Below are positions 3,886 to 12,102 of a stretch of DNA of 64,000 nt, one piece after another. The translations under genes were made by a program, and so were the position numbers. The notes under the pieces are model-generated. The model worked only from the letters and a program-made list of their open reading frames with translations, was not told where the DNA came from and searched no databases. This stretch comes from Candidatus Uhrbacteria bacterium (GTDB lineage Bacteria > Patescibacteriota > Patescibacteriia > UBA9934). The stretch is taken from assembly GCA_963822405.1 (NCBI GenBank), contig CAWGHH010000002.1, forward strand, positions 198,002 through 262,001, given 5' to 3'. Position 1 is the first letter of the stretch, and each line of letters starts with the position of its first letter.

Positions 3886-5010
3886 ATGAAAAAAGTAGCT
3901 TGTGGAATAATCTCGAGAATTAGGGAAGGCGGCAATAAAGAATATTTGCTTGTGAGTTCGACGAAGAACTTTGGGGAATATACTGGTTTCTATTATCCTC
4001 CGGGCGGTCATATTGAAGATGGCGAGAGTGTTCAGGAGGCGCTTATTAGAGAAGTACAGGAAGAGCTTAGTTTGCAAATTAAACCAAATGTAGAGATCAC
4101 GGTGACACCTGGAGACGTTCCAGATCAAGAGACGCATTGGTGGAGTTGTGAATTGATTGGCGGAAACCTAAAGCTTCAACAAGACGAAATCGCTGATGCA
4201 GGATTTTTTACGCGTGAAGAAATGGCTAAGATGAAGATCTGGCCGCAACAAAAAATTTATTTGCGAAGTATATTTCGAAGGTTTAATACAGGCCGTTTAG
4301 ATGGTAGAACATCGCTAATTTTAGATACTTTTCGTTTGACAATTCGACAGAGAATTGTTAGTCTTTTGCGACCGCTGACGACAACCAAAGATTCCAAACT
4401 TTTGTCGGTGGTCCTTCTTTCTAAAAAAGATCGAAGGGGGAATCAATTGAGCAAGAGGTCATTGATCATGACAACGGATAGGACGTTTACTTTTCCTGTG
4501 GCGGTCGCCGCTCTCCTGGAGTGCGGTGCCAAGATTCGTCGTCTTGGCTGGCGAACCAAATTCCACTTGGAGCTGGAGGATTACTCGATATACAGCTCCG
4601 CCGTCATCGTGCGTGTCGCGGACGATGGGAGCAATTCCCGCAATCCGTGGGGAGTTGTCACTGAAGATGATTCCACTGCTGATGATTGGGAGATCATTGA
4701 GGGAGGCGCGAACAGCGAGATCTCGGACGACTTTCGTCCCTCCGTGGGCACCTACGCCCATGCCCTACAATGTCTTCTTGCAGGTTCTCCGGCTATCCGC
4801 ATGTCGGCCGGCTGGCACCCCGCGATGAAGATCTTGCTGGTCGACGGTCAGATCAAGATCGAAGATCGGATAGTCAGTATGGGCAAAGTCATGGTGCTCA
4901 CCCTGCCGAACGGTTCGTACAAGTACTACCGTCCGGCGCCCCAGGACCTGGCCTCGGCCTGGACCGTGATCGAGGAGGTCCGACCTGAACGTAAATCAGC
5001 TGAACCGTAA
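3886..5010 (+). CDS. Nudix hydrolase (N-terminus) continuing in-frame into a GC-rich tandem DUF2829-like (phage-type) domain
   Basis: A Nudix box GGHIEDGESVQEALIREVQEELSL lies in residues 40-63. Residues about 130-194 are a low-complexity R/L/T-rich linker. From the internal ATG at 4468 (MTTDRTFTFPVAVAALLECGAKIRRLGWR...) a second unit (TYAHALQCLLAGSPAIRMSAGWH) repeats the A..ALL.G..IRR.GW signature of the phage DUF2829 family. The DNA from about 4440 to 5010 is visibly much more GC-rich than the flanks. Confidence 0.55.
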   Translation: MKKVACGIISRIREGGNKEYLLVSSTKNFGEYTGFYYPPGGHIEDGESVQEALIREVQEELSLQIKPNVEITVTPGDVPDQETHWWSCELIGGNLKLQQDEIADAGFFTREEMAKMKIWPQQKIYLRSIFRRFNTGRLDGRTSLILDTFRLTIRQRIVSLLRPLTTTKDSKLLSVVLLSKKDRRGNQLSKRSLIMTTDRTFTFPVAVAALLECGAKIRRLGWRTKFHLELEDYSIYSSAVIVRVADDGSNSRNPWGVVTEDDSTADDWEIIEGGANSEISDDFRPSVGTYAHALQCLLAGSPAIRMSAGWHPAMKILLVDGQIKIEDRIVSMGKVMVLTLPNGSYKYYRPAPQDLASAWTVIEEVRPERKSAEP

Positions 5011-5057: not shown

Positions 5058-5092
5058 GCCGCCCACGAGTCAAACTCTTGGGCGGCATTTGT
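5058..5092 (+). terminator. Rho-independent terminator
   Basis: The stem gccgcccacgagtcaaactcttgggcggc is followed by atttgtt. Confidence 0.5.
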
Positions 5093-5226
5093 TAAAATAG
5101 AATATTTATATACTGTCGGTGAGGGTGCGAATTCACGGGCTATTTTAGGAGGTGGTGTAATAAAACACGAAGTACATCGTTTAATGATAGACTAGGTGTA
5201 ATTTATCGTCGTTTTTTGCGTTATGT

Positions 5227-5796
5227 ATGAATGAGGAGGAGCACAAAAATTCCGAACTACAGGGAGCCGAGCTGATTCAGCGAGCAAAAGTTGACCAGCG
5301 TGCTTTCGAAGAACTTTATAACAAGTATTTTTCGGAATTGTATAGATATGTATTTAGGCGTGTCGGACATCGGGAAACTGCTGAAGACATCCTTTCAATC
5401 GCCTTTACAAAAGTATTCATAAGCCTTGATTCGTATACCGGTGACGAAAGGGGATTTAAATCGTGGTTGTACAAAATATCTACCAATTGCCTCATTGATC
5501 ATTATCGGAAACAGGGCGGGAGGAAAGAGACGCAAATTGAGACAGTCGAACATCTCTTAGAAAGTCAGAACACCGCAGACCAGGAAGTAAAAAGACAATT
5601 CACCAGGGCGGGTATTGACCACGCGCTCCGCAGGCTTTCAAAAGGGGATCAAGAAATAATTCATTTGAAATATTTTGCCGAGTATTCAAATCAAGAAATC
5701 GCCGAGCATCTCCGTATATCCGCGAACAGCTGCGGAGTAAAGATTTACCGAGCCCTGGCCAGGTTCAAGTCACTGTATACCTCTTATGATGAATAA
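5227..5796 (+). CDS. RNA polymerase ECF-type sigma-70 family factor
   Basis: Region 2 reads FEELYNKYFSELYRYVFRRVGHRETAEDILSIAFTKVF. The region 4 helix-turn-helix reads EIIHLKYFAEYSNQEIAEHLRISANSCGVKIYRALARFK. The stop TAA at 5794-5796 overlaps the ATGATG start of the next gene. Confidence 0.85.
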   Translation: MNEEEHKNSELQGAELIQRAKVDQRAFEELYNKYFSELYRYVFRRVGHRETAEDILSIAFTKVFISLDSYTGDERGFKSWLYKISTNCLIDHYRKQGGRKETQIETVEHLLESQNTADQEVKRQFTRAGIDHALRRLSKGDQEIIHLKYFAEYSNQEIAEHLRISANSCGVKIYRALARFKSLYTSYDE

Positions 5797-8700
5797 AAAA
5801 CGTGCTGAAGAATTAGAAAATGCCCTGAATTCAGGGGAAAATGCCGTTGAGCGTAATAATTCCAAATTACAGCCGTTATTAGAGGTAGACGAACTATTAA
5901 CAAAACACGTTTATCCTGATGAGGAGCCACGTTCCGACTTTAAAGAGCGGTTGTTGGCGTCTATAGCATCAGAACGAACTGCTCGCTCAAATCGTATGAA
6001 GCTCCCAAAGTTTTCCCTGCCACATGTCAGGTTTGCCGTGCCATTGCGTTGGTCTGCGGCTGTGGCGTTCGTTGTGCTGGTCTCGGTTGTTGTTGGATCA
6101 ACAGGCCTATTTCCGTTTGGCGGATCGCGTTTGGGGGACTTCAGCCGCCTGATTATTGATGAGGCCTATGCTCAAGATAACTTTGCCATTACCCCAACTG
6201 ACGGTGACACAACTGGTGTAAACGGCGCGTCAGGTTTTACTATTACGAGTCACGTTGATATCTCTCTTGAGGATCTTCGGAACAACATTCGTATTTCCCC
6301 TGAAACAGCCTTTAATCTCACCGCGGTAGACGCGAATACATTTTTTCTTGAGCCACTGACGGATCTCCAGGGTGGCCGGGTCTATACCGTGACTGTTGAC
6401 GCTTCTTACCAGAATTCTTCCGGGCAGTTATCTGAGCGTAATTATTCTTGGGCTTTCCAGGTAAAAGACTTATTTAAGGTTTTACATACCGTGCCAAGAG
6501 ATCTCTCTTCTGGCGTACCGACGGATACCGGAATTGAATTCACCTTTAGCTATCAAAATGTAGAGGGACTGAAGGACGCTTTTTCTATCACGCCCCAGGT
6601 TGATGGCCGGTTTGAAACTCATGGAAAAACTGTCGTTTTTGTTCCTAGCACCAGACTTTCCCCGGCGACTATTTACCACGTGTCTTTAGCTGATTCTGTC
6701 CGGGTGACTGGATCTGTGGAGAAATTACTTGAACCCGTTTCATTCCAATTTGAAACGAGTAGCGGGTCTTCGCAGTCTCACTTCAGCATTCAGGAGCCTA
6801 TGCTTGAATTTGCAACCAGCGATCAAGTAGTGATCCCGGTGTATAGCAGTGAAAAAGCAAAAAGCACCATCAGCACTAAAGTTTATGCGTTTAAGAGTGC
6901 AGATCAGTTTACTGACGCGCTTCGCGAACGAACGGAAATTCCTGTTTGGGCCCGAGCTTCGCGTGGAGCGCATACCGTAAAGACAACCAATCTCTCAGAA
7001 GTTTCTACTTCAGAGGCAAGCATCCAAACTGTTGGATATCAGAACTTTGTACCGCTGCCCGATGAATTAGGAGCGGGACTGTACCTGGTTGAGCTCCGAG
7101 AAGGCGCATACGCCTCACAAGTGCTTATTCAGATTACGGATCTGGCGGTGTATTCAGCTGTTACCTCTACAGATACGATTGTTTGGGTGAATGACACCTC
7201 TACTCGTGGCGCCGTGCAAAATGCCAAAATAGCCTCTCTTGATGGACGCTTGAACGCTTCAACGAACGTTGAAGGAGTTGCCGTCCTTAACGGCGCGGCC
7301 ATGCTTGAGGGCGTCCAGCATCCTTGGAATGTGAATGAATATATTACGGTAACCGCGGGTAATAAGCTGACCGTTGTCCAAATTGGTAAGTCGACAAATT
7401 ATTATTACATCGACACGGAATATACAAAGGATCAGTACTGGGACTATCTCTATACGGACCGGTCAATGTACCAGCCAACGGACACCATTTCTTTCTGGGG
7501 ATTTGTTCAAGGGCGGAATGGATCTACGCCAGGCACAGTGCGCGTCACGCTGGCAACTCAGTCTTACTATGATGATGCCGGTGAAACGATTCCGCTGTAT
7601 GAGGAGACTCTTCCAGTTGTTGGTGGAGCGTATACAGGCTCAACATCATTCTCTCGGTTGACGTCGGGTTCTTATGTCTTGAACGTGTATCAAAACGAAA
7701 CACAGATTGGCAGTCGGTATATTCGGGTAAATGAGTATGAGAAACCAGCCTACCAATTGAGTATCGAACCAGAGAAAAAGGCGGGCTTTGCTACGGAGTC
7801 TTTTGCCTACACGGTAGATGCATCGTTCTTTGAGGGAACACCTGTATCCAGTCTTCCGCTCAGCGCAAAATCATCAAATCGATCAACCATCTCTCCTCAG
7901 TTGACTACCACTTTGGACCAAGACGGGAAGGGCACCTTGACGTTTAAGACAAAATCACAAACCTGTGCCTTTGATAAGTCTTGCAGTCTTTACACCTACG
8001 GAAGCGTTTCTGTTCAGCCAACACTGGCGGAGGAGGCGGATATTGTGGCCTCAGCTCCGCAGATTGTTTTTAATTCCCGGGTGACGGCGGGTGTTTCTGT
8101 CGAGCGATCCGACAGTCAACTGATAACCACAACGGTGGATGCATTTAATATTGATCTTTTAAAGATTAACAAATCTGGGGGCAGCTATTATAGAGAAGAG
8201 GATTATCGTGGTTCTCTTGCGAGCGGAGTGCTGATTCGTGGTCAGATCACGGAAACATCCTACAGCCGCGTCCAAACGGGAGAGGTTTATGACTTCATAA
8301 ATAAAGTGCACTACCCGAAGTATCGGTATGATAGGCAGGAGAAGATTGTTGATACTTTTAATGGCACCACCGGGGCAGATGGTTCTTTTGCTGTCACATA
8401 CCAAGGCGCTGAGGACAAGAGTTACTCGGTGGAAGTGATTCTTCAAGATAAACAAGGAGGTGAGCATCTTCTCTCTGGGTGGAATTATGCAAATGAACGT
8501 TTCCGAGAATGGCGAGAATACGACTATTACAATATCGCGCGCGTTAAAGAAACAAATGCTTTCCGTTTAGGGGAGACGGCGGAGTTTGCCTTTCAGAAAA
8601 ATGGCGAGCCGGTAGTAGCGGATGCGGATGACTCTTTCCTTTTCTTGAAGCTTAAGGAGGGGCTCATAGATCATGAGGTGTCAAGGGATTCGCTCTACTC

Positions 8701-11359
8701 GTTTGTCTTTAACGAAGATGCCGTTCCGAACGTTTCGGTTGACGGAGTGTATTTTGATGGCCAGTCTTACATTGTGCCTGGATATTCCCTGGGCGGTTCA
8801 AACGCCACTGCAAACCTGGATTTGTCTGAACGAGAACTCCGTGTTGCGGTCAGTACGGATAAGGCTGAATATGAACCGGGGGAGAAAGTTATTCTATCCC
8901 TTCGCGTTACTGATGTGAACGGAAAACCGGCGACGTCTGCTGTAAATGTGAACCTTGTTGATGAAGCTTTCTACGCGTTACAAGAAGAAGCGGTAAATCC
9001 GCTTGGCTCGCTGTACCAAAATCTTGGTAGCGGTTTAGCTTTTGTAGGCGAAACACATAAGTATCGTTCGCTTGCAGGTTTAGATAACGGCGGTGAAGGC
9101 GGAGGTTGTTTCTTGCCGGGCACCAGGATTATGCTTGAAAATGGCAGAGAGAAATCCATTGAGGACATTAAAGTTGGGGACCGCATTCTCACAAAAGCGT
9201 CAGAACGATCAGATAAGCTTGTTGGTGCGACGGTGAAACAGGTGTTTGTTCATGACGTGAATGAATACATGGTCTTGAATGGCAAAATCCGGGTTACTCC
9301 CATCCACCGGATGTTTGTGAATTACGGCTGGCAGCCAATTGGGGAGGCTAAGCTTGGCGATGTGCTACTTGGTGCCAACGGTGAGATGGTGCCAATTGCT
9401 TCCATTGAATGGGTGCGTGAACCGGTGACAGTCTATAACTTTGAGGTTGAAGGGCTGCATACCTATATTGCCGATGGTGTCTACGTTCATAATGACAAGG
9501 GCGGTGTTCGGGAAGATTTTGCGGACACAGCGCTCTTTGAATCCGTGAGGACAGATGCAAATGGCCAGGCTACGCTCACCTTTGAGTTGCCGGACAATAT
9601 TACTTCTTGGCGTGTCACAGCGCAGGCCATTAGCCCTGACCTTTATGCAGGTGCCGGGGTGACTCCGATCCGTTCTACAAAACCGGTGTTTGCTGACGCG
9701 GTCATTGCCTCTGAATATCTGGCTTCAGATAAGCCTGAGATTAAAGTCCGCGCTTACGGCACTGCGCTCACAAATGATAGCCGGGTGAATTTTGAGGTCT
9801 CGTCAGAAAGTCTTAAGATTAATGAGTCATTTACAGAAAAGGCGTACGCTTCAAAGTATGTAAGCCTTGGAGATCTTTCTGGCCGCACTGGATCTCATGA
9901 CGTTCTAGTTTCCGCTAAGTCCGGAGCGTATGCTGACGCCCTTAAGCGGACCACGAGCGTTGTAGAATCCCGCATCATGCAGACGGAAGAATCTGTAGAA
10001 ACGGTTACGGATACCACCTCACTTGCGGACAAGGCAGGAGTTGAACTGATCTTCACTGACGCCTCAAGAGGAAAATATTATCAGAACGTTAGAAGTCTTC
10101 AGTACACAAGCGGCGGCAGGGCAGACCAGCTCTCAGCCAGCATTTTGAGCCAGCAACTTCTTGCTGACTACTTTGGCGGAACTAAGCTGTCAGATGCGGA
10201 TCTGACGGCGTATACGACTACAAATGGCTTGATTGCGCTCTTACCGTATGCTGACGGAGATCTGGCACTTACCGCTAAGATAGTTACGGCTGATCCAGAA
10301 CTGGTGGACGGCTATACACTGTCATCAACGCTCCGCGGAATTCTTGACTCTAAAAAATCAACCAATGAAGAGATTGCTCAGGCGCTGTTGGGACTGGCGG
10401 CTCTTGGCGAACCGATCTTAATTCCAATTCAAAACTTGGCCCGGCTTGAAGACCAGTCAGTAACAACCAGGCTCTACACGGCCATGGCTCTGGCGGAAAT
10501 CGGTGACCGTGAGAATGCGAGAGACATATTCGTTGACCTTCTCCGCGATTATGGTGAGAAGACGGACGCATATACTCGCCTAAAATTTTCATCTGACGCA
10601 GAGACGCTGGAAGTGACGGCGCTAGGAACAGTACTTGCAGCCATGGTTCAGGATCCACACATGGAGAAACTTTGGACATACACAAGTACCGTTTATGTGA
10701 AGAATGTCATTACCCCACTTGAGCGCGCGCTCTATCTGGGTGAGGTAATACCAGCGCTTCCGGTGTCGGACACCTCATTTGAACTTGCTGTAAAGGGAAA
10801 GTCTGTCACTATCGATCTCTCAAATGGCAAAACCTATAGCCTACGACTAACGGAAGACCAGGCTACAAGCGCGAACATTCGTTCCGTGAAGGGATCTGCT
10901 GTCCTAACAACGTCACGGCGGGTGGAGAGTAATGGAACCGAAAGGGATGAACTGGTGTCACTCACGCGTGAGTACCGTAATCTCCAGGGACAGGCGGTTA
11001 CTGAGTTTAAAGAAGGGGACGTGATAGAAGTACGCATCGCCACCTCCTTTAGTGGTTCAGCTCCTGACGGGGCGTATCAGATTACAGACCTTGTTCCAAG
11101 CGGACTGACGCCTGTCACTCAGCCGCGCCGTTACAGTAGCCCAAATAAGAACTCAACAGTTTTGCGGCCGTATTCGCTTCAGGGGCAGACGGCAAAGTTC
11201 ATGTATTACAAAGGACAGTACAACAATCGCACATTCAGTTATTACTTGCGCGTGACCTCAATTGGTGAATATACCGCCGAGCCTGCACTGATTGAATATG
11301 CGAACGCGCCGACTATCCGTAGCTTCTCGGAAAACGGGGCCTTAAAGATCACCAGATAG
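5786..11359 (+). CDS. Giant membrane-anchored protein (1857 aa) with an anti-sigma-factor-like N-terminus, an alpha-2-macroglobulin-like MG-domain body without thioester, and an inserted Hint/BIL domain
   Basis: The gene is translationally coupled to the ECF sigma gene by an 11-nt overlap. About 90 cytoplasmic residues are followed by a single transmembrane segment (AAVAFVVLVSVVVGS) and a large extracytoplasmic part. A2M-family hallmarks include YTDRSMYQPTDTISFWGFVQGRNG (MG2-like, nt about 7451-7520). They also include DKAEYEPGEKVILSLRVTDVNGKPATSAVNVNLVDEAF (nt about 8858-8960) and REDFADTALFESVRTDANGQATLTFELPDNITSWRVTAQAIS (MG6 motif, nt about 9500-9630). The C-terminus has an A2M-receptor-like TDLVPSGLTP. 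No CxEQ thioester motif is present. Confidence 0.75.
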   Translation: MMNKKRAEELENALNSGENAVERNNSKLQPLLEVDELLTKHVYPDEEPRSDFKERLLASIASERTARSNRMKLPKFSLPHVRFAVPLRWSAAVAFVVLVSVVVGSTGLFPFGGSRLGDFSRLIIDEAYAQDNFAITPTDGDTTGVNGASGFTITSHVDISLEDLRNNIRISPETAFNLTAVDANTFFLEPLTDLQGGRVYTVTVDASYQNSSGQLSERNYSWAFQVKDLFKVLHTVPRDLSSGVPTDTGIEFTFSYQNVEGLKDAFSITPQVDGRFETHGKTVVFVPSTRLSPATIYHVSLADSVRVTGSVEKLLEPVSFQFETSSGSSQSHFSIQEPMLEFATSDQVVIPVYSSEKAKSTISTKVYAFKSADQFTDALRERTEIPVWARASRGAHTVKTTNLSEVSTSEASIQTVGYQNFVPLPDELGAGLYLVELREGAYASQVLIQITDLAVYSAVTSTDTIVWVNDTSTRGAVQNAKIASLDGRLNASTNVEGVAVLNGAAMLEGVQHPWNVNEYITVTAGNKLTVVQIGKSTNYYYIDTEYTKDQYWDYLYTDRSMYQPTDTISFWGFVQGRNGSTPGTVRVTLATQSYYDDAGETIPLYEETLPVVGGAYTGSTSFSRLTSGSYVLNVYQNETQIGSRYIRVNEYEKPAYQLSIEPEKKAGFATESFAYTVDASFFEGTPVSSLPLSAKSSNRSTISPQLTTTLDQDGKGTLTFKTKSQTCAFDKSCSLYTYGSVSVQPTLAEEADIVASAPQIVFNSRVTAGVSVERSDSQLITTTVDAFNIDLLKINKSGGSYYREEDYRGSLASGVLIRGQITETSYSRVQTGEVYDFINKVHYPKYRYDRQEKIVDTFNGTTGADGSFAVTYQGAEDKSYSVEVILQDKQGGEHLLSGWNYANERFREWREYDYYNIARVKETNAFRLGETAEFAFQKNGEPVVADADDSFLFLKLKEGLIDHEVSRDSLYSFVFNEDAVPNVSVDGVYFDGQSYIVPGYSLGGSNATANLDLSERELRVAVSTDKAEYEPGEKVILSLRVTDVNGKPATSAVNVNLVDEAFYALQEEAVNPLGSLYQNLGSGLAFVGETHKYRSLAGLDNGGEGGGCFLPGTRIMLENGREKSIEDIKVGDRILTKASERSDKLVGATVKQVFVHDVNEYMVLNGKIRVTPIHRMFVNYGWQPIGEAKLGDVLLGANGEMVPIASIEWVREPVTVYNFEVEGLHTYIADGVYVHNDKGGVREDFADTALFESVRTDANGQATLTFELPDNITSWRVTAQAISPDLYAGAGVTPIRSTKPVFADAVIASEYLASDKPEIKVRAYGTALTNDSRVNFEVSSESLKINESFTEKAYASKYVSLGDLSGRTGSHDVLVSAKSGAYADALKRTTSVVESRIMQTEESVETVTDTTSLADKAGVELIFTDASRGKYYQNVRSLQYTSGGRADQLSASILSQQLLADYFGGTKLSDADLTAYTTTNGLIALLPYADGDLALTAKIVTADPELVDGYTLSSTLRGILDSKKSTNEEIAQALLGLAALGEPILIPIQNLARLEDQSVTTRLYTAMALAEIGDRENARDIFVDLLRDYGEKTDAYTRLKFSSDAETLEVTALGTVLAAMVQDPHMEKLWTYTSTVYVKNVITPLERALYLGEVIPALPVSDTSFELAVKGKSVTIDLSNGKTYSLRLTEDQATSANIRSVKGSAVLTTSRRVESNGTERDELVSLTREYRNLQGQAVTEFKEGDVIEVRIATSFSGSAPDGAYQITDLVPSGLTPVTQPRRYSSPNKNSTVLRPYSLQGQTAKFMYYKGQYNNRTFSYYLRVTSIGEYTAEPALIEYANAPTIRSFSENGALKITR
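9107..9493 (+). other. Hint (Hedgehog/intein) domain of bacterial-intein-like (BIL) type embedded in the giant protein
   Basis: Residues 1108-1236 begin GGEGGG-CFLPGTRIML and include ...TVYNFEVEGLHTYIADGVYVHN. Cys1, an intein block-F-like VYNFEVEG.HTY and a terminal His-Asn are all present. The +1 residue is Asp, so canonical protein splicing is not expected. This matches the description of A-type BIL domains. Confidence 0.7.
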
Positions 11360-11361
11360 AT

Positions 11362-12102
11362 ATGAAGGCAACAAAGAGAGGGCTGCTAATCATGCTAGTC
11401 CCTCTTTTTGTTATTTCGAGTATCTTTTTCTTACGAGACTCGCCAAAGACCGCTGCCGTGCGAGGGGTGATTCTGCCTCATCACTTAGTAGCGGGTGACA
11501 TGCTCACTGAAGTGTTAGAGACAATTGATACAAAAACAATTAAACGCATCATTCTCATCGGACCAAATCACTCTGAGCGCGGAGAGTACACCGCGCTGGC
11601 GGCTGGCGTGGAGCAAGAACTCTTTGCGGAGTTACAAAAGGAAGGGATTATTCTGCGCGATGATGCGGGCGTAATGGATGACCATGCCATCACCATGCCT
11701 CTCTCATATCTTCAAGAGGCGATTCCGCAGGCAAAGATATTGTCCATCATTCTGAGTGAGAACCAGTCGATTGAGCGTCTCAAAGAACTCGGCCAACGTC
11801 TGGCTCCGGATGAAGAAACACTCATTGTGGCATCAATTGATTTTTCACATTATCTCTCGCTAGACCAGGCAAACAAAAACGATGAAATCACTAGTGCTCT
11901 AATTGCTTCTCGTGACTACGCCGGACTGTATGAACTGAATAGCGATTATATTGACTCAAGCTCTTCCATCATTGTCTTTCTTACTGCTATGGATGCCGTA
12001 GGAGCCACCGATGGGCGCATAATCAACCACAGCAACTCCGCTCTCATCCTAGATGCCAGTTATGAGTACACTACGAGTTATTTTACAATGATGTTTCGAT
12101 GA
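11362..12102 (+). CDS. Memo-like / AmmeMemoRadiSam system protein B family
   Basis: Motifs in MEMO1 order are present: GVILPHH..AG (for AIIAPHAGY), RIILIGPNHS (for ILGPSHH), DDHAITMPLSYL (for DEHSIEMHLPY) and SIDFSHY (for SSDFCHWG). There is an N-terminal signal or transmembrane segment. The gene starts 2 nt after the giant gene's stop. Confidence 0.65.
   Translation: MKATKRGLLIMLVPLFVISSIFFLRDSPKTAAVRGVILPHHLVAGDMLTEVLETIDTKTIKRIILIGPNHSERGEYTALAAGVEQELFAELQKEGIILRDDAGVMDDHAITMPLSYLQEAIPQAKILSIILSENQSIERLKELGQRLAPDEETLIVASIDFSHYLSLDQANKNDEITSALIASRDYAGLYELNSDYIDSSSSIIVFLTAMDAVGATDGRIINHSNSALILDASYEYTTSYFTMMFR

Follow-up and report, generated by a model that had tools for sequence, protein, structure and literature searches.

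Results

The locus encodes a sigma factor, a giant membrane macroglobulin and a Memo-like protein

The locus described here lies within a stretch of 64,000 nucleotides (hereafter the 64-kb window) from the genome of a Candidatus Uhrbacteria bacterium (assembly GCA_963822405.1, contig CAWGHH010000002.1, positions 198,002 to 262,001 of the forward strand). Three genes follow one another on the + strand: an extracytoplasmic function (ECF, group IV) sigma factor of 189 aa (5227..5796), a membrane macroglobulin of 1857 aa, below called the giant protein (5786..11359), and a Memo-like protein of 246 aa (11362..12102). An original prediction, made from the letters of the window alone, had read them as a sigma factor coupled to an anti-sigma-like, alpha-2-macroglobulin (A2M)-like protein with an inserted Hint domain, followed by a Memo-like gene. 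The overlap that it saw between the sigma stop codon and the ATGATG start of the giant open reading frame (ORF) is indeed present: the sigma gene reads ...TCT TAT GAT GAA TAA at its 3' end, with the ATGATG embedded there (TATGATGAATAA), and the two genes share 11 nt, or 8 nt when counted from the second ATG. The Memo-like gene begins 2 nt past the stop codon of the giant ORF, likewise as predicted. The best reading of this arrangement is a single three-gene operon, an element of a wider model of envelope signaling that, taken whole, we regard as evenly balanced between true and false.

The sigma factor, at ~190 aa, consists of sigma-2 and sigma-4 regions only, which places it among the ECF (group IV) proteins. 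It matches Pfam Sigma70_r2 (7.8e-14), Sigma70_r4_2 (4.4e-11) and Sigma70_ECF (4.9e-8) and reaches 100.5 bits against NCBIfam TIGR02937 (sigma70-ECF), whose cut-off is 42.9; the NCBIfam scan returned no equivalog-level family at cut-off. Its nearest solved structures are SigW (5wuq, 3.4e-15) and sigma-BldN (6dxo, 6.1e-15), each of which is paired with a single-pass anti-sigma factor.

The modeled ectodomain is a complete macroglobulin with a degenerate thioester site

A Kyte-Doolittle scan places a single N-terminal transmembrane (TM) helix at aa 91–111 (AAVAFVVLVSVVVGSTGLFPF; 6056..6118, + strand), after 90 mostly charged residues (aa 1–90; 5786..6055), and the N-terminus is not a signal peptide. 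The predicted plan, in which a single TM helix links about 90 cytoplasmic residues to an exterior of roughly 1750 aa, is thereby borne out, and the basic stretch ahead of the helix is consistent with an N-in orientation.

Beyond the membrane, the N-terminal half of the exterior (aa 121–1107; 6146..9106, + strand) holds Big_5 Ig-like domains, an array of MG domains and the A2M_BRD domain. Pfam recovers Big_5, MG2 at aa 554–648 (32.8 bits, equal to the cut-off of 32.8), MG3 weakly, and A2M_BRD at aa 922–1065 (1.9e-8; 35.2 bits, cut-off 22.7). In the C-terminal half, an A2M (MG7) domain spans aa 1248–1320 (9527..9745, + strand; PF00207, 1.3e-8; 34.9 bits, cut-off 21) and a bMG10 (MG8-like) domain spans aa 1725–1839 near the C-terminus (10958..11302, + strand; PF17973, 9.7e-7; 29.5 bits, cut-off 26.2). 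The macroglobulin signatures quoted in the original prediction fall within these same domains, with YTDRSMYQPTDTISFWGF (aa 556–573) in MG2, DKAEYEPGEKV...VDEAF (aa 1025–1062) in A2M_BRD, PDNITSWRV (aa 1269–1277) in A2M and TDLVPSGL (aa 1767–1774) in bMG10, and both profile and fold searches return A2M, not just generic Ig repeats. Searched against the PDB, a 33-sequence family profile finds Escherichia coli ECAM/YfhM (3e-19) and Salmonella A2M (1.6e-17), followed by lower matches to insect TEP1, human A2M, CD109 and complement C3/C4/C5; the bMG10 region aligns with ECAM residues 1415–1611.

The ectodomain was modeled by AlphaFold as two pieces, aa 121–1107 (mean predicted local distance difference test score, pLDDT, 85) and aa 1085–1857 (mean pLDDT 80). 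Foldseek against the PDB matches the first piece to ECAM (5a42, 3.1e-29) and Salmonella A2M (SaA2M; 4u48, 1.6e-26), then to the beta chains of C5/C4/C3, and the second to ECAM (5a42, 1.9e-23), 4u48 and 4ziu, a fragment running from MG7 to the C-terminus, then to the alpha chains of C5/C3. Helices at residues 342–573 of the second model (pLDDT ~90) form a thioester-domain (TED)-like domain at about aa 1426–1657 (10061..10756, + strand). As judged from the profile matches and these models, the ectodomain is a complete bacterial alpha-2-macroglobulin whose thioester site has degenerated. The motif CxEQ occurs nowhere in the giant protein, as had been claimed, and its only cysteines are residues 727, 733 and 1108. 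The thioester position reads GGRADQ (aa 1443–1448; nt 10112–10129, + strand), and the family consensus there is GDRxDQ with an invariant Arg. Sister proteins carry YPYGCVEQ at the same distance from PDNxTxW, and the lack of a thioester is thus specific to the lineage of the window protein.

A bacterial intein-like Hint domain occupies the bait-region loop

The Hint domain extends over 129 aa, from aa 1108 to 1236 (9107..9493, + strand), within a Gly-rich bait-region loop (...GGEGGG/CFLPG...VYVHN/DKGGVREDF, with slashes marking the borders). Pfam PT-HINT matches aa 1123–1237 (1.7e-12), which upholds the prediction of a mid-protein Hint; as a small correction, the domain is assigned to aa 1108–1236, Asp1237 being the +1 residue. 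The best solved relative in the search of the family profile against the PDB is 2lwy, a "bacterial intein-like domain" (1.3e-16), ahead of Hint modules from ADP-ribosyltransferase toxins and RecA mini-inteins. A2M_BRD and A2M (MG7) flank the domain, and residues 728–805 of human A2M align directly after it; in the established numbering of A2M this place is the C-terminal end of the bait region, and it is also the beta/alpha junction of C3/C4/C5.

The catalytic residues of the window Hint are C1108, the Thr and His of VTPIH, and H1235-N1236. Across the family, Cys1 and the block-B TxxH Thr and His are invariant in 37/37 aligned copies, all 36 copies that can be read at their end terminate in His-Asn, and a Gly precedes Cys1 in 36 of the 37. 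The +1 residue is Glu in 17, Asp in 10, Gln in four, Ala in three and Ser in two of the 36 readable aligned copies; in 20 further database proteins it is Asp in 15, Gly in two, and Asn, Ala and Glu in one each. Hence 54 of 56 readable sequences (~96%) have a non-nucleophilic +1 residue (D/E/Q/A/N/G), and Ser stands there in two. A canonical intein requires Cys, Ser or Thr at this position. With Asp at +1 and no endonuclease domain, the window Hint was rejected as a canonical intein, its N-terminal Cys, TxxH and His-Asn notwithstanding; it was likewise rejected as the pretoxin Hint of a polymorphic toxin, since no toxin module follows and the macroglobulin continues. By its residues it is an A-type bacterial intein-like (BIL) domain, and the complete conservation of its catalytic set is in keeping with our judgment that it is very probably active.

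Hint-less homologs have an unbroken Gly-rich loop, GAE.GG-(E)-GG..R.DF, at the same site, which makes the Hint a clean insertion and the acidic +1 residue an ancestral residue of the loop. At 37 or more loci the insertion falls at one fixed site of a conserved loop, in contrast to the hypervariable locations of A-type BIL domains. The domain has the same GC content, overall and at third codon positions (GC3), as the rest of its host gene, and thus bears no sign of recent transfer; it is kept across many lineages of the candidate phyla radiation (CPR) type at about 30% host identity. A neighbor-joining tree of 71 proteins is star-like and compatible with a single gain of the Hint followed by losses or with several gains.

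The result of the Hint reaction may be either splicing or cleavage, and we do not choose between them. A-type BIL domains, which have His-Asn and no +1 nucleophile, self-cleave (PMC7765530, summarizing Amitai 2003 and Dassa 2004); they cut at their C-terminus and cannot ligate their flanks (PMC7765530), which together with the non-nucleophilic +1 residue favors cleavage. Fragments of bait-cleaved MagD stay associated (PMC5764988), and halves produced by the Hint would be expected to do the same.

A search of 1.84 billion cluster representatives with the Hint and 22–25 flanking residues on each side yielded 338 matches at E <= 1e-30, and of the 147 newly returned proteins (among 150 listed), 86 proved to be macroglobulins that carry the Hint in this position. 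Other large proteins (P0117, of 3399 aa, P0118, P0119 and P0125), which have PKD, Big_7, Big_9, cadherin-like or Tim44-like domains, contain between two and eight Hints in tandem that are 36–47% identical to that of the giant protein; this suggests that surface proteins employ the present Hint type more widely.

The macroglobulin–Memo pair is the core of a widespread gene family

Relatives of the giant protein occur in Uhrbacteria-, Magasanikbacteria- and Parcubacteria-type metagenome-assembled genomes (MAGs), and a protein search returned 106 relatives. Named relatives bearing the Hint come from Uhrbacteria and Falkowbacteria MAGs; Moraniibacteriota, Tepidanaerobacter, Oscillospiraceae and others contribute Hint-less relatives of 1600–1750 aa. 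Scanned once, the GTDB species genomes gave at least 586 relatives spanning CPR, Firmicutes and Chloroflexi. Gene neighborhoods were analyzed for the best 80 of these at least 586 relatives, using our own ORF calls and phmmer; 69 of the genome loci had enough upstream sequence, and with the addition of 30 metagenome loci we obtained a set of 83 complete loci (individual loci are cited by L numbers).

An adjacent, upstream and co-oriented ECF sigma gene is present in 18/69 genome loci and in 29/83 complete loci, and a Memo-like gene in 60 of the 83. Scoring each complete locus for Hint (H), sigma (S) and Memo (M), we counted 26 with H and M (one with a thioester), 22 with M only (one with a thioester), 16 with H and S, six with S and M, six with all three (one with a thioester), one with S only and six with none. 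Neighbor clustering over the 80 loci revealed no conserved neighbor besides the Memo-like and sigma genes. A sigma–A2M–Memo linkage is conserved in part: the order sigma, A2M (with Hint), Memo, with gene overlaps, recurs in relatives at 64%, 54% and 40% identity while their other neighbors differ, and most members lack the sigma gene. The window thus represents a minority form, in which signaling is an add-on to the A2M–Memo core.

Hint-bearing proteins come almost entirely from CPR-type records. The thioester motif YPYGC[VIM]EQ, ~190 residues past PDNxTxW, is carried by 19 of the 86 Hint macroglobulins, several of which also have the N-terminal pattern CNDPE..LLE / P..F..L. A metagenome search with a single thioester-type protein as query gave no match, and an alignment-based query returned loci. 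Two of these (L085, 2425–9154; L086, 13–6265) show the order Memo, sigma, A2M with Hint and GCVEQ, and L088 (4602–10674) shows A2M with Hint and GCMEQ followed by Memo. The lineage of the window protein appears, from these comparisons, to have lost the thioester within a larger group that shares Hint, sigma and Memo and derives from CPR-type and unassigned metagenome contigs. Nine loci with CPR-type Hint proteins (L009, L010, L014, L015, L018, L020, L021, L036 and L064) stem from third-party annotation (TPA) MAG records titled uncultured Pseudomonadales, Gammaproteobacteria or Flavobacteriales; the tree groups L009, L010 and L014 with Collierbacteria loci, and the organism labels of these records look unreliable.

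The cytoplasmic N-terminus is a candidate anti-sigma domain

The N-terminal 90 residues, our putative anti-sigma module, contain the motif EEPRSDFKERLLASI at aa 46–60. In the 69 genome loci, at least 50 residues precede the TM helix in 17/18 sigma-linked and 7/51 unlinked proteins (Fisher p = 9e-10, Mann-Whitney p = 1.6e-8), and in the combined set of 83 in 25/29 and 6/54 (p = 1e-11), p-values that overstate independence because the loci are phylogenetically related. The pattern P..(D/E)F(K/Q)..L...I, represented in the window by EEPRSDFKERLLASI, is found in 22/29 sigma-linked N-termini and 1/54 unlinked ones, its regular expression having been written after the sequences were seen. In a crude neighbor-joining tree, sigma-linked members fall on CPR-type branches and, separately, on Firmicutes branches.

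Both of these limits weigh against an anti-sigma assignment, as do the outcomes of direct searches. Seventeen N-terminal domains, taken one by one or combined into a profile, gave no more than chance hits in Pfam, NCBIfam and the PDB, and the N-terminal profile found nothing among 5.8 billion proteins, the domain being too short for significance at that library size. The whole giant protein produced a single sub-threshold anti-sigma-type match in NCBIfam (NF052375, E = 0.047), and the zinc-binding motif HxxxCxxC is absent from the N-terminus. The absence of classical similarity has a parallel in RsbN, an anti-sigma factor that is not known to resemble the classical anti-sigma domain. The anti-sigma arm of the original prediction thus keeps its linkage, with sigma genes at 29 of 83 loci tracking the long N-terminus, and lacks an anti-sigma profile in Pfam, NCBIfam or the PDB. 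As no profile recognizes the domain, its role is argued from context, and on that basis we consider the cytoplasmic N-terminus to be probably the anti-sigma factor of the adjacent ECF sigma factor.

In some sigma-less members (L013 155-, L020 415- and L036 2503- for the A2M N-termini), the sigma-linked motif is replaced by another small cytoplasmic domain (...AKKSGKTDDEIRQSLLGAGWQETDIIEAL...). A Peribacteria-type subgroup (L007, L008, L011 and L012), which has Hint and sigma without Memo, has its own N-terminal motif, VDK..V.KSKEYLWKYI.

Tandem ECF-type promoter motifs precede the sigma gene

Two tandem motifs of the form GTAAT-N16-CGTT lie 5' of the sigma gene on the + strand (5157–5181 and 5198–5222). 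In the second copy (5198–5222) the -10 element lies 5 nt ahead of the sigma ATG, a spacing that suggests a leaderless or near-leaderless transcript. Counted over both strands, the 64-kb window has three matches to GTAAY-N16-CGTW against 1.6 expected, and two of the three fall within the 216-nt gap 5' of sigma; the third (5853–5877, + strand) lies within the 5' end of the macroglobulin gene and may be due to chance. A generic scan of the window for sigma-70 promoters and terminators stayed at chance level.

The motif GTAA[CT]-N16-CGT[TA] is likewise found just 5' of sigma in L081, L083, L002 and L032 and in the Firmicutes loci L039, L056, L062 and L073, with near variants in L082 and L046, and is therefore common to CPR-type and Firmicutes members. 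Its -10 element lies 3–10 nt from the start codon in the CPR-type loci, suggesting leaderless mRNAs, and about 60–70 nt upstream of a Shine-Dalgarno sequence in the Firmicutes loci. The SigW promoter consensus is TGAAAC-N16-CGTA, and the shape GTAAT-N16-CGTT is usual for an autoregulated ECF promoter; the best reading is that the sigma factor would transcribe its own operon. The Peribacteria-type subgroup has GCAAC-N~16-TGTTAT upstream instead.

The Memo-like partner is probably extracytoplasmic

The third gene product exceeds the cut-offs of Pfam Memo (PF01875, 5.6e-21, 75.4 bits, cut-off 27) and of TIGR04336 (6.8e-23, 81.3 bits, cut-off 26), which substantiates the predicted assignment, and its alignment to human MEMO1 retains the PH, GPNH, DDH and DFSH motifs. 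A hydrophobic N-terminal TM or signal-anchor helix makes it probable that the protein is extracytoplasmic. In 57/80 genome loci a Memo-like gene directly follows the A2M gene, with a median overlap of 4 nt. AMMECR1 and the radical-SAM activase are found neither among the conserved neighbors of the 80 loci nor in the gene tables of L081–L084.

Fusions of the Memo-like protein to a C-terminal PGA_cap, a CapA-type poly-gamma-glutamate capsule synthesis domain, occur in 11 CPR-type loci and measure ~580 aa in total (L006 15387–17156, L009 10434–12311, L013 5653–7428 and eight others). L083 has a separate PGA_cap gene 2 kb upstream.

Flanking features of the locus

The gene upstream of the locus (3886–5010, + strand; 374 aa) encodes a NUDIX hydrolase domain at aa 2–124 (1.7e-14) and a Tad2-like (Thoeris anti-defense 2-like) domain at aa 202–271 (8.7e-8). 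On its 3' side, a hairpin read by eye (GCCGCCCA-N13-TGGGCGGC, then ATTTGTT; 5059–5090, + strand) is a plausible terminator dividing this gene from the operon; the terminator scan omits it, its loop being longer than 8 nt. Rfam found no family at gathering score on either strand of the 64-kb window (no tRNA, rRNA or riboswitch). PADLOC has no match to the locus, which is therefore not a component of a known defense system.

Discussion

The modules of this locus are all known, but neither their combination nor the site of the Hint has been described; the group is large and common in metagenomes. Full-text searches found no paper joining anti-sigma or ECF with macroglobulin, bacterial intein-like with macroglobulin, intein with bait region, or bacterial alpha-2-macroglobulin with Memo, and no precedent for a macroglobulin as the sensor domain of an anti-sigma factor. 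The original prediction knew of no such architecture in the literature, in agreement with these searches; the 338 representatives at E <= 1e-30 show that in metagenomes it is not rare. A CPR genome paper mentions two large membrane proteins with A2M domains, possibly defensive (PMC8080830).

Two bacterial A2M types, both periplasmic and from Gram-negatives, have been described: Type I, with a thioester and a pbpC neighbor, and Type II, without a thioester and encoded in a six-gene mag operon (PMC5764988). The giant protein shares domain order and fold with members of both (Type I ECAM/YfhM and SaA2M; Type II MagD and YfaS), would likewise stand on the outer face of the cytoplasmic membrane, and is likewise encoded beside an envelope enzyme. 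It differs in being anchored by an N-terminal TM helix, not by a lipobox or a partner protein, in the occurrence of its family in single-membrane lineages (CPR, Firmicutes, Chloroflexi) and not in Gram-negatives, and in its Memo-like partner, which takes the place of PBP1c or the six-gene mag operon; it further adds Big_5 domains, the bait-loop Hint and the sigma-linked cytoplasmic head. We rejected an assignment to Type I, given that thioester, lipobox and pbpC neighbor are missing. Like MagD/YfaS it lacks CxEQ, but anchor, operon and host lineages differ, and Type II was rejected as well.

The sigma gene arrangement resembles that of RsiW/SigW of Bacillus subtilis and RsbN/sigma-BldN of Streptomyces venezuelae, where the sigma gene is also directly upstream and translationally coupled; the candidate shares with these anti-sigma factors a layout in which a single TM helix joins ~90 cytoplasmic residues to an extracytoplasmic sensor, and the AAC...CGT type of autoregulated promoter. 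Unlike them, it has neither HxxxCxxC nor a match to an anti-sigma profile, and its sensor would be a 1750-aa macroglobulin. The Hint, in turn, agrees with A-type BIL and pretoxin HINT domains (such as 2lwy) in its motifs, Cys and His-Asn, non-nucleophilic +1 residue, missing endonuclease and secreted or surface-exposed bacterial host. It differs in its fixed place within one loop of a conserved multi-domain protein, kept across deep lineages, whereas such domains stand in hypervariable regions (PMC7765530, for BIL) or before a toxin module. That place corresponds to the A2M bait region and to the beta/alpha processing and anaphylatoxin (ANA) site of C3/C4/C5. The N-terminal half of the giant protein is similar to the complement beta chains and the C-terminal half to the alpha chains, with the insert at their junction; in complement, furin cuts there and the ANA domain sits there, and the giant protein has the Hint instead of both. 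The Memo-like protein, finally, matches AmmeMemoRadiSam protein B (TIGR04336) at the curated cut-offs and keeps the His/His/Asp-His metal-site motifs of MEMO1; it differs in its membrane anchor, in having a macroglobulin as partner instead of AMMECR1 and a radical-SAM enzyme, and in its fusion to PGA_cap in some lineages.

Our preferred interpretation, which we hold with about as much doubt as belief, is an autoregulated sigma/anti-sigma envelope module with the macroglobulin as its sensor. The ECF sigma factor would transcribe its own operon from the GTAAT-N16-CGTT promoters. The giant protein, a type-II membrane protein (N-in, C-out), would hold the sigma factor inactive through its 90-residue cytoplasmic head and display its 1750-residue outer part, a complete, thioester-less macroglobulin, on the surface of the single-membrane cell. 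Damage, proteolysis or a conformational change of the ectodomain may then lead to degradation of the anti-sigma factor and release of the sigma factor, which would lead to more macroglobulin and to more of the Memo-like metalloenzyme exported with it, the latter working with the macroglobulin outside the membrane. After export the Hint, which lies at the place of the protease-cleaved loop of other macroglobulins, would process itself: it would either be spliced out, leaving the short Gly-rich loop known from the Hint-less relatives, or cut the chain into beta-like and alpha-like halves that remain together. The gene layout with its overlap, the domain assignments and folds, the missing thioester, the place of the Hint with its conserved catalytic residues, the promoter motif and the co-occurrence counts are what the analysis shows; that the N-terminus binds sigma, what the signal is, whether proteases are trapped, how the Hint reacts and what the Memo-like protein does are the parts of this scheme that we infer. 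Trapping or binding of proteases by the ectodomain is a proposition that could fall either way; thioester-less MagD still traps protease and its bait-cleaved halves remain associated (PMC5764988), a precedent for a thioester-less trap with associated halves.

Several observations speak against parts of this scheme. Most homologs lack the sigma gene, from which it follows that the main job of the macroglobulin needs no signaling. The loop at the bait position is short and Gly-rich, which leaves protease trapping unassured. The labels "trap" and "protease sensing" of the original prediction are inferences, and the absence of the thioester is confined to this lineage. The Hint also occurs in thioester-bearing sisters, where early cleavage should waste the thioester; this leans toward splicing or conditional action and away from a harmless constitutive cleavage.

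For the Hint, a realistic though less probable account makes it a passenger, a mini-intein-like element that splices out and leaves a normal macroglobulin, with no role in sensing or activation. Its splicing-type catalytic residues are all kept, the joined flanks (...GGEGGG-DKGGVREDF) match the Hint-less loop GAEKGG-E-GGSERSDF, it sits at the same site in thioester-bearing paralogs, where premature cleavage should be harmful, and A-type BIL domains were reportedly seen by Dassa et al. in 2004 to splice without a +1 nucleophile. Such a passenger is harder to reconcile with a +1 residue that is Asp, Glu or Gln and not Cys, Ser or Thr in ~96% of sequences, with a composition like that of the host gene and no homing endonuclease, with the persistence of the domain in many CPR-type lineages whose host proteins are about 30% identical, and with the inability of A-type BIL domains to ligate their flanks (PMC7765530). 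At the other extreme, and quite improbable in our estimate, the Hint would be a condition-dependent "self-bait" trigger that cuts the beta/alpha junction on a redox, metal or pH cue: in sigma-linked proteins the cut would expose the anti-sigma factor to intramembrane proteolysis and free the sigma factor, and in the thioester sisters it would fire the thioester without an external protease.

Concerning the sensor itself, it is unlikely, in our view, that the giant protein is no protease inhibitor and instead employs the macroglobulin fold as a surface scaffold or adhesin of a small episymbiotic cell, around which the Memo-like enzyme (in some loci fused to CapA) would modify the envelope. The lost thioester, the short bait loop, the N-terminal Big_5 Ig-like domains, the fusion of partner enzymes to PGA_cap in 11 loci and the large surface proteins typical of CPR episymbionts (PMC8080830) would all suit that role. 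It sits less well with a full MG1-MG8/CUB/TED architecture that is under selection in free-living Firmicutes and Chloroflexi too, with sister proteins that retain the canonical thioester, and with protease trapping by thioester-less MagD (PMC5764988). Somewhat less probable again is a sigma factor that merely controls expression of the macroglobulin operon, its activity being set by another protein or by transcription, and an N-terminus that is no anti-sigma factor. Residues 1–90 have no detectable similarity to anti-sigma families or structures, and PMC8999054 describes ECF sigma factors without a cognate membrane anti-sigma factor; yet no other ORF between or beside the two genes is fit to be an anti-sigma factor, the gene overlap is conserved, and the long N-terminus with its motif accompanies sigma in CPR-type lineages and, separately, in Firmicutes, and is absent otherwise.

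The locus represents a large third group of bacterial macroglobulins, one that belongs to single-membrane bacteria and has a different partner enzyme. If the macroglobulin is the exterior of an anti-sigma factor, a complement-like fold would be tied to transcription and would offer a way to sense proteolytic attack on the cell surface. The presence of the Hint in the very loop whose cleavage activates the A2M/C3 family raises the question of self-maturation or self-firing; should the self-bait idea be true, the thioester sisters could fix the protein covalently to their own wall or to a host cell. Hint-bearing proteins of this kind rank with the largest surface proteins that have been noted for CPR genomes (PMC8080830), and they may bear on the survival of these episymbionts on their hosts or on their attachment to them.

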